Part shown: one piece after another, positions 24,001-33,000 of the stretch
Position numbering within the stretch: the stretch's first letter is position 1
Layout: the number at the start of each line of letters is the position of its first letter
Source of the DNA: Escherichia coli
GTDB lineage: Bacteria; Pseudomonadota; Gammaproteobacteria; Enterobacterales; Enterobacteriaceae
DNA length: 64,000 bases
Reading direction: 5' to 3' (one strand)
NCBI RefSeq assembly: GCF_051903065.1
Contig: NZ_CP178438.1
Position numbers: made by a program

Positions 24001-27000
24001 TCAACCCAATATCGTGCTGCTCGATGAACCCAGCGCCTCGCTGGACGAAATGGCAGAAGCGTATTTAATCGAACAACTGAAACAGTGGATTGGGCATCGC
24101 ACGCTGATTATCGCCACTCACCGCACGGCGATGCTGCAACTGGTGGACCGCATCATTGTTATGGATCAGGGGCGGATTGTGATGGATGGCGCGAAAGAGG
24201 CCATTTTGCGTGAACAGGGCGAACCCACGACGCGACGGGTGGTGTTGCAGGAGAAGAATAAGGGGTCTGCGGCATGAACGGACAACTGCAATATAACCGT
24301 GGCCTGACTGAACCCCGCTTGCCGCGTTCGGCGCTGGCGGTACGCGTTACCGCTGTAATGCTGCTCTGTTTTCTCGGCTGGGCGTGGTACTTCCAGCTTG
24401 ATGAAGTCACCACCGGCAGCGGCACGGTAGAACCCTCCGGGCGCGAACAGGTGGTGCAGTCGCTGGAAGGCGGAATTCTGTATCATCTGAACGTGAAAGT
24501 TGGCGATATTGTCGAACAGGGCCAGCCGCTGGCGCAGCTTAACCGCACCAAAACTGAATCCGACGTCCAGGAAGCGATGTCGCGGCTGTACGCGGCGCTG
24601 GCAACCTCGGCGCGGCTGCGGGCGGAAGTGAGCAATAAACCGTTGGTCTTCCCTGACGAACTGAATAAATTCCCCGAACTTATCGAGTCGGAAACGGCGT
24701 TGTACAACACTCGCCGCGACGGGTTGAACAAAGCCACCACCGGGCTGACGCAGGGGATTAGCCTGGTCAACCGTGAACTGGCGATGACCCAGCCGCTGGT
24801 GAAACAGGGGGCGGCGAGCAGCGTCGAAGTGCTGCGCCTGCAACGCCAGGCCAATGAACTGGAAAACAAACTCAGCGACGTGCGCACGCAATACTACGTT
24901 CAGGCGCGGGAAGAGTTAGCGAAAGCCAATGCGGAAGTGGAAACCCAGCGTTCGGTGATCCGTGGGCGTGAAGACTCCCTCACCAGGCTCAACTTTACTG
25001 CGCCAGTTCGTGGCATTGTTCAGGATATTGACGTCACCACGGTTGGCGGCGTCATCGCCCCCGGTGGTAAACTGATGACCATCGTGCCGCTGGATGAGCA
25101 ACTGCTGATTGAGGCAAAAATCTCCCCGCGCGATGTGGCGTTTATCCATCCGGGGCAAAAATCGCTGGTGAAAATAACTGCCTACGATTACTCCATCTAC
25201 GGCGGCCTGCCGGGAGAAGTAGCGGTGATATCACCAGACACCGTGCAGGATGAAGTGCGGCGCGATGTTTATTACTATCGGGTGTACATTCGCACTTTCA
25301 GCAACCATCTGGAAAACAAAAGCAAACAGCAGTTTCCGATATTCCCCGGTATGGTGGCGACGGTCGATATCCGCACCGGCAAAAAAAGCGTGCTGGATTA
25401 TCTGTTGAAACCCTTTAACAAAGCACAGGAGGCGTTGCGCGAACGATGAACATTAGCGATGTAGCAAAAATTACCGGCCTGACCAGCAAAGCCATTCGCT
25501 TCTATGAAGAGAAGGGGCTGGTGACGCCGCCGATGCGCAGCGAAAATGGTTATCGAACCTACACGCAGCAGCATCTCAACGAATTGACCTTACTGCGCCA
25601 GGCGCGCCAGGTGGGCTTTAACCTGGAAGAGAGCGGCGAGCTGGTGAATCTGTTTAACGACCCGCAGCGTCACAGTGCCGACGTCAAACGTCGCACGCTG
25701 GAGAAGGTGGCGGAGATTGAACGGCATATCGAAGAACTGCAATCTATGCGCAACCAGCTACTGGCGCTGGCGAATGCCTGCCCCGGTGATGACAGCGCCG
25801 ACTGCCCGATTATCGAAAATCTCTCCGGCTGCTGTCATCATCGGGCGGGGTGATTAACGCTTGCGAAAATAGTCGTCCATTATTTTCGTCAACTCCGGAC
25901 GTTCGCCGTCATCATTGATGGCAAAATCCAGAAAAAAAGCATCTGCTTGCGGCGTTCGGTTTTGCGCCATCAACCGGAAGGTGAGGGGGCGATAACTGAC
26001 GTATGCCGGATAGCTGATAACGAATCGGGCAAAGTCAATAAAAAGCGGCGAGTGTGTGAAAAACAGCGCCTGCAAAATTACATCAGCCTTTTCATCCTCC
26101 CCCAAACCTTGTTGGATCATGCTCTTAATACGAGTTTCGCTCAAATTCCCGGCCTCAACAATTTGCCAGGCTTGATCCAGTGAAGGGTACCGGCTGACGC
26201 TCTGCTGCAACTCTTCTGACCAGGTTTCGGATGGGCTGATGTGCTTATCAGGGCCGAAACTCTCCCATGCGCCGGACGGTAATGTTTTCCACTCAGTGAG
26301 TTTGGGAACGTGGCACAGTAGCTCTGTTTTGTGCAGACATTCTCCGCCCGGAAATACCAGGGTTTGTTGCTCATCATTAAAACGGGTTGCCGTGCTGAGT
26401 ACCAGTGTTTTGAGCGGTCGCCCTTCCAGTGCGGCAGCAGTGGCCTTATGGTGCCCGTCGAGCAGAACGCAGAGATAGGAATCAGGGAGATACCAGGCCA
26501 AAGCGCGGGCGTCCGGTTTATCGCGATAAAACGTCACACGCTCAGGATTAAAATGTGATGGCGGCTGTCCAGGAAGAAGAAAACAGGGGGCGGTGTTACA
26601 GAAATAGCAATATTCAGGATCCCAGACGGCAACGGTTGCCGGATTACTGGCGCTATGGTCCGTTGCCGCCCAAAAGAAATGCCCATTGCCATCCGTCGGG
26701 TAAAGTTCACGATCTTCCAGCAGATAATAGCCATCAGCAAGGCATGAGAACAGCGGTGTAAGCGCGGCAAAAGCGTCCGTAAAGCCAGACCATGGGCGAT
26801 TCCAGTTTTCGAGAGCAGACAAAAACCGGGCGGCTCCCTGTTCATCATCCGCAAAACCGCTGTAGACAAATTCCGCGCAGGTGGGGCAGCCGGCCTCGGA
26901 CCAGAAACGTATTACCGGGACATCCTGCCAGCAGAGTGAACGGATAAGCCCATAAGGGTGCGGATCGTAAAGCACACATTGACGCAGAAATCCTTTACCG

Positions 27001-30000: not shown

Positions 30001-33000
30001 GGTTTACGCCAGGCAGGAAAATTTAAATGAATGAATTTGAGAAGATTTTTAATGAAATGAATCTGGACCGGGCATTGCTACCGATCCTTTTTCGTTCGAA
30101 CCGGTCGACAGTATGGAAGTATTTAAGCGGCGATAGTACGGCTCCTGCCTCTGCCATGTCGCTGATTATGCTGTTGCAGTTGATCCAGAAACGAAACCCC
30201 GATCTGTTAGCCGAATGGTTAACGCTTTCTGATTTCACCATTCCGCCAGAAGTTTACCTGGACCAGCCTGATTACTGGAAAGGGTGGGTGTATACCCAAC
30301 ATAAGGTCAATAAAAACGTCCTGGAATATCTAAAAAAACACTATCCGGATGAAGACCAAAAAAGTATGGGTAAAGGCCGGGAAGAGTAATTTTGCCTCTA
30401 CTCGGCTATATGCCGGATGCGGCGCAAGCGCCTTATCTGGCCTACGATTTGGGCATATTTTGTAGGCATGATAAGACGCGTCAGCGTCGCATCAGGCGAT
30501 GACCGCACGGATGATCAGCGTTATCCCTTCTATCGCAATGACTTCAACATGCGTACCTGCGCCGAGATCCTCGCTGGCGCTGACAGGCCATGAACTGTCA
30601 CCGACGCGCATATGACCGCGCCCGTTGACCAGCGGAGATTCCAGCACAAAACGTCGGCCAATCAGCTGCTGCCCGCGCTGGTTTAAATGACTGTCGCTGT
30701 GCTTTTGTTCGCGCACCCGCCGCGACAACCATTTCCACCACAGCCAGGCGGCGAGCAGCGTCAGGACGGCAAACATCACCCCTTGCCACTCCCAACCCAG
30801 CGGCACCAGCCAGACCACCAGGCCGGTAATCACCGCTGCCACGCCACTCCACAACAAATAACCATTTCCGCCCAGCATCTCGGCTGCCAGCAGCAACCCG
30901 CCGAGACTGAGCCAGAAAATATGTGGATGAACGACCATTAACTCCATCATGGCTGAGTCCGTTTGTTGGCGCTGTCTTTCACCAGCTCGGCAATCCCGGC
31001 AATCGACCCCATCAGGCTGCTGGCCTCTAATGGCATCATCACCACTTTGCTGTTACTGGACGAACCGATCTGCTGTAACGCTTCGGTGTATTTCTGCGCT
31101 ACGAAGTAGTTCACCGCCTGAATATCACCGGAGGCGATGGCTTCAGACACCATTTTGGTGGCGCGGGCTTCTGCTTCAGCGGAACGTTCACGCGCTTCAG
31201 CCTGTAAAAACGCCGACTGACGTTCGCCTTCCGCTTTCAGGATTTGCGACTGTTTTTCACCTTCGGCTTTGAGGATTTCCGCCTGACGGATCCCTTCCGC
31301 TTCGAGGATGTAAGCGCGTTTGGTACGTTCCGCTTTCATCTGCGCGTTCATTGAAGAGATAAGCTCTGCCGGTGGGCGCACGTCGCGAATTTCAATACGG
31401 GTGACTTTAATCCCCCACGGGTTAGTGGCTTCATCGACAATACGCAGCAGGCGTGAGTTGATGCTGTCGCGCTGAGAGAGCATTTCGTCAAGTTCCATTG
31501 AACCCAGCACGGTACGGATGTTAGTCATGGTCAGGTTGATGATCGCCAGCTCCAGATTGCTGACTTCATAAGCCGCGCGCGGCGCATCAATCACCTGAAT
31601 AAAGCACACGGCGTCGATGGTAACGTTGGCGTTATCTTTCGAGATAACTTCCTGGGAAGGGATATCGAGCACTTGCTCCATCATATTGATCTTGCGACCA
31701 ATGCGATCCATAAACGGCACCACCAGACTGAGCCCCGGCTGTAACGTTTTGGTATAGCGACCAAAACGTTCTACCGTCCATTGATAGCCCTGCGGCACGA
31801 TTTTGACGCCCGCGCCGACAATGACCAGCGCGACAAAAATGAGAATCGGGATAAAGATAAGCATCGGAAAAACCTCCTGTTGTACCGTCCATAATCAGCA
31901 AAATTGCTGCTTGATTAAACAAATTATACCTGATTACTGAAAGAGAGTTCCCCCTTATTCCTGCGAAGGATAAACTGTTTTTAGTAAAAATCAGAAAAAG
32001 GGAACAGCGATGCAGGAAAATAGTCCTTTGCTTCAGCTACAAAACGTAGGATATCTGGCGGGTGATGCGAAGATTCTTAATAACATCAATTTTTCGCTGC
32101 GTGCTGGCGAATTTAAGTTAATTACCGGTCCTTCTGGTTGTGGCAAAAGTACGCTGCTAAAAATAGTTGCTTCATTGATCAGCCCAACCAGCGGAACGTT
32201 ACTGTTTGAAGGTGAGGATGTCAGCACACTAAAGCCAGAAATCTACCGCCAACAAGTCTCTTACTGCGCCCAGACACCGACGCTGTTTGGCGATACGGTA
32301 TACGATAATCTGATCTTTCCCTGGCAGATCCGTAACCGGCAGCCTGACCCGGCCATTTTTCTCGATTTTCTTGAACGCTTCGCCTTGCCGGACAGCATTT
32401 TGACGAAGAATATCGCCGAGCTATCTGGTGGTGAAAAACAACGCATCTCATTGATTCGTAACCTGCAATTTATGCCGAAGGTTTTATTGCTGGATGAAAT
32501 CACCAGTGCGCTGGATGAAAGTAATAAACATAACGTTAATGAGATGATCCATCGTTATGTGCGCGAGCAAAATATTGCCGTGCTGTGGGTGACACACGAT
32601 AAAGACGAAATTAATCATGCGGATAAAGTGATTACACTGCAACCGCATGCCGGAGAAATGCAGGAAGCACGCTATGAACTCGCATAATATTACTAACGAA
32701 TCATTAGCACTGGCATTAATGCTGGTGGTGGTGGCAATCTTAATTAGCCATAAAGAAAAACTGGCGCTGGAGAAAGATATTCTCTGGAGCGTTGGGCGCG
32801 CGATAATTCAGCTGATTATTGTCGGCTATGTGCTGAAGTATATTTTCAGCGTGGATGATGCCAGCCTGACATTATTGATGGTGTTATTTATCTGCTTTAA
32901 TGCGGCGTGGAACGCGCAAAAACGCAGTAAATATATTGCTAAAGCTTTTATCTCATCGTTTATTGCCATTACGGTCGGGGCGGGAATTACCCTGGCGGTG

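Follow-up and report, generated by a model that had tools for sequence, protein, structure and literature searches.

The cueR-ybbJ island of Escherichia coli as a probable composite of a mobile HTH-autotransporter-lipoprotein module and an unrelated ParB/Srx-fold gene

We analysed the interval between cueR and ybbJ in a stretch of 64,000 nucleotides (hereafter the window) from the Escherichia coli contig NZ_CP178438.1. Taken as a whole, this interval is likely to be a composite island, in which a mobile module of a helix-turn-helix (HTH) gene, a trimeric autotransporter gene and a lipoprotein gene adjoins an unrelated gene for a protein of the ParB/sulfiredoxin (ParB/Srx) fold. This reading draws on the gene content, the homology of the autotransporter anchor, the repeat structure of the stalk, the conserved synteny of the module and the independence of the ParB/Srx-type gene. 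The interval itself is the known accessory O-island 29 (OI-29), or S-loop 43, of enterohaemorrhagic E. coli (EHEC) O157:H7, present here in a longer allelic form; new are its composite nature, the recurrent cassette, the ParB/Srx assignment and a conflict with the literature on the protein GmrA. A preliminary description had read the interval as one four-gene cluster with a SadB-like lipoprotein; its autotransporter holds, whereas the four-gene cluster and the likeness to SadB do not.

The four minus-strand genes of that description all exist as open reading frames (ORFs) in the places assigned to them. The autotransporter gene (27876-29660) encodes 594 aa from the likely ATG at 29660, within a full ORF of 600 aa (27876-29678), and is followed on the same strand, after 84 bp, by the gene for a 140-aa lipoprotein (27369-27791). 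The stop of the latter overlaps by 4 nt the start of a 68-aa gene (27166-27372), beyond which lies a 409-aa gene (25854-27083; 407 aa from ATG 27077 in the Prokaryotic Genome Annotation Pipeline, PGAP). Overlooked was a plus-strand gene of probable HTH type (120 aa, 30027-30389), which diverges from the autotransporter gene across 366 bp of AT-rich intergenic DNA (29661-30026). The flanking genes are cueR (25446-25853, plus strand) and ybbJ (30492-30950, minus strand). The claim that the site is nearly empty in K-12 was borne out, since the cueR and ybbJ stop codons abut there with zero bases between them.

To delimit the module, one genome per GTDB species was scanned and the fetched loci were searched with hidden Markov models. 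Homologues of the lipoprotein were found in Enterobacterales only, and in 13 of the 26 species with a full-length homologue a YadA-anchor ORF lies upstream on the same strand, immediately so in 12 and about 2 kb away in Pantoea. These 13 species include Escherichia (3), Pseudocitrobacter, Rahnella (3), Yersinia aleksiciae, Ewingella, Enterobacter (2) and Pantoea. The divergent 120-aa gene is present in eight of them and in two further species, giving 10 in total, while at lipoprotein loci the 68-aa gene is confined to Escherichia and Pseudocitrobacter and the 409-aa gene to Escherichia. Loci of the Pseudocitrobacter type reproduce the arrangement of the window, YadA-anchor gene included, with identities of 45-68% for the 120-aa gene, 49-67% for the lipoprotein and 43-47% for the small gene; they lie at different chromosomal sites, one of them between fetA and qmcA. 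Pseudocitrobacter faecalis carries two tandem autotransporters (633 and 588 aa) before the lipoprotein and small genes (positions 1801-5532 of the fetched locus), and this locus adjoins a serine recombinase. Such a pattern points to an integrative element as the form in which the cassette moves. Because the combination recurs across genera and sites, we consider the real module to be the HTH, autotransporter and lipoprotein genes rather than the four genes grouped earlier.

The identification of the autotransporter as a coiled-coil protein with a YadA-type anchor, proposed from the first reading of the DNA, is confirmed. The YadA_anchor family (PF03895) matches over its full length (model positions 1-60 of 60; E=3.1e-11) at residues 541-600 of the 600-aa ORF, placing the β-barrel membrane anchor at 27879-28058 on the minus strand, and the PDB chains of the AtaA and Hia anchors also match (E 7e-6 to 1e-4). 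At the N-terminus, a Sec-type signal, MNTVKLSLLAVVVATAVSPSAFA↓GD, was read by eye, with n-, h- and c-regions, an A-x-A motif and an AFA↓G cleavage motif (…SPSAFA↓GD). Within the passenger, a conserved N-terminal domain (about 50 aa) precedes the stalk. In a crude test, residues 442-532 (594-aa numbering) showed a 3.5-residue hydrophobic periodicity with z of 4-9.7, as expected of a coiled coil, and the stalk repeats gave z of 2-3.7. These repeats, two units of 123 aa, correspond to a tandem duplication of 369 bp (28649-29363, minus strand; 1.9 copies, 93% identical) detected by Tandem Repeats Finder. Among Pfam matches up to E=10 there was no YadA head, Hep_Hag, HIM or neck family. Matches to SMC/Rad50 were discarded as an artefact of coiled-coil composition (33 bits against cut-offs >500).

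The protein resembles the short E. coli trimeric autotransporters of the Saa/Eib type, which likewise carry a YadA anchor after a coiled-coil stalk; the PHROG 'adhesin' family of prophage-borne trimeric autotransporters matches its residues 395-600 (E=7e-21). Unlike Saa/Eib-type proteins, however, it has no detected YadA-like head or neck motifs, its passenger is unrelated to theirs beyond the membrane-proximal stalk, and its gene is chromosomal rather than located on a prophage or plasmid.

Of the 5426 complete E. coli genomes used for gene counts, 1414 have the 3' part of the autotransporter gene and 350 have the 369-bp repeat unit, at 1-5 places per genome; the copy number of the stalk repeat differs between strains. 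On repeat-bearing alleles, PGAP annotates a 349-aa coding sequence that starts from an internal Met and lacks the signal peptide; the repeat region (28649-29660) has no annotated feature in many genomes, including a strain with an intact ORF 100% identical to the window. This truncation hides the gene from adhesin surveys. The module is also repeatedly struck by insertion sequences: in one strain, 100% identical to the window apart from this, IS903B lies inside the lipoprotein gene, IS1A lies within or beside the lipoprotein and small-protein genes of strain SCU-172, and IS1203 is found within the island of an O157 strain, adjoining split autotransporter fragments.

The 120-aa protein is the product of the sole probable XRE-type HTH gene in the island and belongs to a small family (24 representative clusters among 1.84 billion proteins). 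Distant members of this family match HTH_3 (3.8e-4), Xre-like-HTH (7e-5), MqsA_antitoxin (3e-5) and HTH_26, with E-values ranging from 3e-5 to 4.5e-4, and the protein is therefore probably an XRE-type DNA-binding protein, as judged from its sequence relatives. The intergenic region that it shares with the autotransporter gene is conserved, with 91% mean column identity over four Escherichia lineages including O157, despite the diverging autotransporter alleles. Two perfect palindromes built of the same heptamer lie within it, TGTTTCT-ATA-AGAAACA (29694-29710) and AGAAACA-AAAAT-TGTTTCT (29823-29841), each occurring once in the window with 0.00 occurrences expected by chance. We infer that these palindromes are candidate operators of the HTH protein.

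The lipoprotein carries the lipobox LLAG↓C and a mature N-terminus C-S-S, with Ser at position +2. Of 24 family members, 22 have a readable lipobox; in these, Ser, Thr, Gln or Glu occupies the position, and Asp in none. Under the +2 rule these residues specify sorting to the outer membrane, which is thus the predicted location of the protein. Its mature part comprises a helical segment with two conserved cysteines and a C-terminal domain of eight strands, and no PDB chain has sequence similarity to it. Three weak matches were set aside: an Rz-like spanin (E=0.033) that covers the lipobox only, and the TraV and XAC1346 NCBIfam models (E=0.003), which score far below the curated cut-offs and match the signal region only. 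The N-terminal part (lipobox and the two-Cys segment SRMADCQAQGVSxDTCYLAEQNRQ) is further found, joined to unrelated C-termini, in Aeromonas, Pseudomonas, Buttiauxella, Atlantibacter and some Alphaproteobacteria, in almost no case next to an autotransporter; it looks like a separable module.

The preliminary description had likened this protein to SadB, which, as in Salmonella and at the UpaG/EhaG loci of E. coli, is a small lipoprotein co-encoded with a trimeric autotransporter (SadA). In both lipoproteins a helical segment at the N-terminus precedes a β domain, and both families include a stand-alone lineage, represented by YajI in the case of SadB. In a rough neighbour-joining tree, autotransporter-linked lipoproteins fall mostly into one clade and stand-alone ones into others, which echoes the SadB/YajI situation (PMC3953254). 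However, the two proteins share no sequence similarity and differ in fold, since the β domain is a small eight-strand barrel in the window lipoprotein and a MATH-like sandwich in SadB. Furthermore, SadB resides in the inner membrane, whereas the Ser at +2 predicts the outer membrane for the window lipoprotein; the gene lies downstream of the autotransporter gene, in contrast to its upstream position in sadBA; and the autotransporter is headless, unlike SadA. The comparison thus reduces to a loose functional analogy.

The 68-aa protein is bitopic: a single transmembrane segment separates its basic N-terminus from a C-terminal helix of some 35 aa. Its homologues in Pseudocitrobacter-type loci, at 43-47% identity, occupy the same position, and no small transmembrane ORF was found downstream of the lipoprotein gene in Rahnella, Yersinia, Ewingella or Enterobacter. 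The gene is an Escherichia/Pseudocitrobacter add-on to the module.

The identity of the interval with OI-29 was established by mapping the published λ-Red primers for z0638, gmrA and z0640 onto the genes. The z0638 arm lies immediately upstream of the lipoprotein start and the z0640 arm immediately upstream of the 120-aa ORF, while both gmrA arms bracket exactly a 338-aa ORF annotated as 'YadA family autotransporter adhesin' in an O157-type strain. In the Sakai annotation the corresponding genes are ECs_0546 ('putative lipoprotein'), ECs_0548 ('adhesin') and ECs_0549, and ECs0548 in S-loop 43 has been listed as a 'Saa-like protein' (Ogura et al. 2007). Primer mapping and annotation together identify the OI-29 genes (EDL933 z0638, z0639/gmrA and z0640) with the lipoprotein, autotransporter and 120-aa genes of the window, and they occupy the same cueR-ybbJ site. 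The small gene of 67-68 aa is absent from the list of OI-29 genes in PMC5826968. Amino acid identity between OI-29 and the window is 98.6% for the lipoprotein, 98.5% for the small protein and 99% for the 120-aa protein. The autotransporters have in common the signal peptide and the roughly 50-aa N-terminal domain; over their last 255 aa, the O157 and window proteins are 76% identical. They differ in length (594 aa in the window, 338 aa in O157), since the window protein has the two 123-aa stalk repeats that O157 lacks, and its N-terminal third is divergent (40% identity). The 409-aa gene adjoining cueR is a further feature of the window that O157 does not have.

The DNA upstream of the autotransporter gene had been taken as AT-rich and typical of silenced, horizontally acquired sequence. 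Its low GC content is real (0.32 over 29600-30049, against 0.5-0.6 in the flanks), but constitutive silencing does not agree with data from O157, where all three OI-29 genes are transcribed in Dulbecco's modified Eagle's medium and drop to 0 reads per kilobase per million (RPKM) on attachment to HeLa cells. The joint drop points to co-regulation of the three genes.

Under the composite reading, the HTH gene would diverge from an operon across the conserved AT-rich region with its two heptamer palindromes. This operon would encode a headless coiled-coil autotransporter, an outer-membrane-type lipoprotein and, in Escherichia and Pseudocitrobacter only, a 68-aa inner-membrane protein, the gene for which is presumably translationally coupled to that of the lipoprotein. 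Stalk length would vary through the 123-aa tandem repeats. By analogy with type Vc secretion, the autotransporter could be exported by Sec, after which the β-barrel assembly machinery (BAM) would insert its 12-stranded trimeric barrel and the coiled-coil fibre would be displayed on the cell surface. Genetic linkage suggests that the lipoprotein, with or without the 68-aa protein, acts as a periplasmic partner for biogenesis, stabilisation or anchoring of the fibre, and that the HTH protein may control the divergent promoters through the palindromes. The motility phenotype reported for GmrA would then be an envelope or surface effect of the fibre.

Several points weigh against this reading, in whole or in part. 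A promoter and terminator scan returned background levels, leaving the operon structure to be deduced from gene spacing alone. The HTH assignment is by transitive homology, the direct matches of the 120-aa protein being sub-significant: MqsA_antitoxin, the C-terminal domain of MqsA, at E=0.12, and in the PDB an Xre/MbcA antitoxin (0.028), YbaQ (0.074) and HigA-2 (0.5), these PDB matches (E 0.03-0.6) lying on the HTH at residues 10-58. Surface display, trimerisation and an interaction between lipoprotein and autotransporter are predictions from sequence for the genes of the window. Among full-length homologues of the lipoprotein, half have no autotransporter gene beside them, so the lipoprotein can work independently, and its small β-barrel is MliC/PliC-like, a fold that resembles lysozyme inhibitors. 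Rather than a biogenesis factor, the lipoprotein might be cargo with a function of its own, inherited along with the adhesin as a pair for virulence or defence; it could, for instance, inhibit host lysozyme in the manner of MliC/PliC or be a periplasmic binder of another kind. We regard this as unlikely.

A further challenge comes from published work on OI-29 itself (PMC5826968), in which GmrA is described as a transcriptional activator of motility genes. Deletion of gmrA lowered motility, fliA and fliC, and gmrA alone complemented the defect; the motility phenotype was the same in several pathotypes. Binding of GmrA to the fliA promoter was reported from an electrophoretic mobility shift assay with His6-GmrA and from chromatin immunoprecipitation-quantitative PCR with GmrA-3xFLAG, a 'DNA-binding domain' was assigned from CDD, and deletion of z0638 or z0640 had no motility phenotype. 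In the same study, loss of the whole of OI-29 left adherence to HeLa and Caco-2 cells unchanged. These data weigh against the composite reading, which accounts for the motility results only indirectly. However, the published activator is the trimeric autotransporter of OI-29. Since its primers bracket exactly the autotransporter ORF, GmrA carries a signal peptide and a YadA anchor: the cloning primers start ATGAAAACTGTAAACGTAGCTTTA, which encodes MKTVNVAL of the signal peptide, and the 3xFLAG primer finishes on the codons for ...GVGYSF, the final β-strand of the barrel. In our literature search, we found no paper linking GmrA to autotransporters. Cytoplasmic DNA binding sits poorly with a signal peptide and a β-barrel anchor, and we therefore consider it highly unlikely that GmrA is literally a transcription factor; its motility phenotype most likely arises indirectly, through the envelope or the cell surface, and not by direct activation of transcription.

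The 409-aa gene has a distribution of its own. It is matched in 965 of the 5426 genomes, near full length in 270, with about 695 of the 965 genomes matching only some 60% of it. The lipoprotein and small genes are found in 1416 genomes and either unit in 2217. The junction that joins the two units is present in 163, and genomes with both number 163, against about 252 expected under independence. In B2 strains the gene stands alone between cueR and ybbJ, in sequence type 131 (ST131) it is a frameshifted pseudogene with internal deletions (positions 1955-2633 of the fetched ST131 locus), and in O157 it is absent. A Salmonella homologue (52% identity) lies between rihA and the chaperone genes hscC/djlB/djlC, Firmicutes homologues stand alone, and neither has an autotransporter as neighbour. 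Owing to this separate distribution the gene is not part of the autotransporter module.

The 409-aa protein has no signal peptide, HTH or Pfam match, and its gene has no partner parA. Foldseek returned full-length relatives, several of them annotated ParB/Srx, and on these structural grounds the protein is modelled as an independent cytoplasmic ParB/Srx-fold protein that happens to share the hotspot. Its central domain has the fold common to ParB, KorB, sulfiredoxin and SerK/SbnI. In contrast to these, it is predicted to comprise three domains, namely an N-terminal β domain with a CPTC motif, the ParB/Srx domain and a helical repeat. Across a family of 32 sequences the DGHH motif is invariant, as are D, G, G, F and W within YPTDGNGHFFW. 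DGHH(K) stands in the position of what we take to be the DGHHR-type nucleotide-binding loop of ParB/Srx proteins, and the protein probably binds nucleotides. Two Cys motifs had been singled out earlier. CPTC is conserved, with PTC invariant and the first Cys present in at least 90% of sequences; CYFCNTAPC was rejected as a motif, as it is not conserved in the family and is lost even in a 92%-identical E. coli allele.

The proposal that all four minus-strand genes form one functional cluster, in which a SadB-like lipoprotein helps the autotransporter and the Cys-rich 409-aa protein is a component, could draw on their common strand and short gaps, on the lack of a convincing terminator between the small gene and the 409-aa gene, and on an identical five-gene order in two other Escherichia species, but it is largely refuted and very hard to credit given the independent assortment of the 409-aa gene mapped across E. 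coli genomes, its ParB/Srx-type product without a signal peptide, and a lipoprotein unlike SadB in sequence and fold. The gaps between the autotransporter and lipoprotein genes and between the small and 409-aa genes folded no better than shuffled sequences (z=0.24 and -0.34, respectively).

Several features surround the island. Between the 120-aa gene and the ybbJ stop lie palindromic elements of the repetitive extragenic palindromic/bacterial interspersed mosaic element (REP/BIME) type (30375-30531; GCCGGATGCGGCG...CGCCTTATC), the copy number of which varies among lineages; Rfam returned only sub-threshold matches to REP-derived naRNA4 over these coordinates. At its very end, over about eight codons (30492-30520), ybbJ reads …LHIRAVSS* in K-12 and …LIIRAVIA* in island-bearing strains, which places one boundary of the island within the 3' end of this gene. 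The 'empty' cueR/ybbJ site of K-12 may be a deletion scar. Directly upstream of cueR is a second accessory island with a giant gene for a 'BapA-related adhesin SiiEA', together with a type I secretion ABC transporter and an HlyD adaptor (HlyD-type gene at 24274-25449); in K-12 and B2 strains all that is left of it is a frameshifted remnant of the adaptor gene, 98 bp long. With the SiiEA island on one side and the autotransporter island on the other, cueR is flanked by two independent adhesin islands. A phage or defence origin was considered and rejected, as PHROGs and PADLOC returned nothing beyond the match to the autotransporter anchor and stalk and spurious coiled-coil hits.

The 409-aa gene marks out a ParB/Srx family, as yet uncharacterised, that E. 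coli shares with Salmonella and Firmicutes. For the cassette, we tentatively propose that the lipoprotein, joined in Escherichia and Pseudocitrobacter by the 68-aa protein, could represent a third, so far unrecognised class of dedicated periplasmic partner of trimeric autotransporters after SadB and TpgA, one that is specific to short headless coiled-coil fibres and moves within Enterobacterales in a cassette of three or four genes that includes an XRE-type regulator of its own; the GmrA motility phenotype would then stem not from DNA binding but from envelope or surface signalling by the fibre. A global screen of 2026 that looked for autotransporter helpers admitted only autotransporters with a YadA head domain, and therefore could not have found a headless cassette. 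The recurrent HTH-autotransporter-lipoprotein cassette is thus a concrete candidate for a new autotransporter accessory factor.

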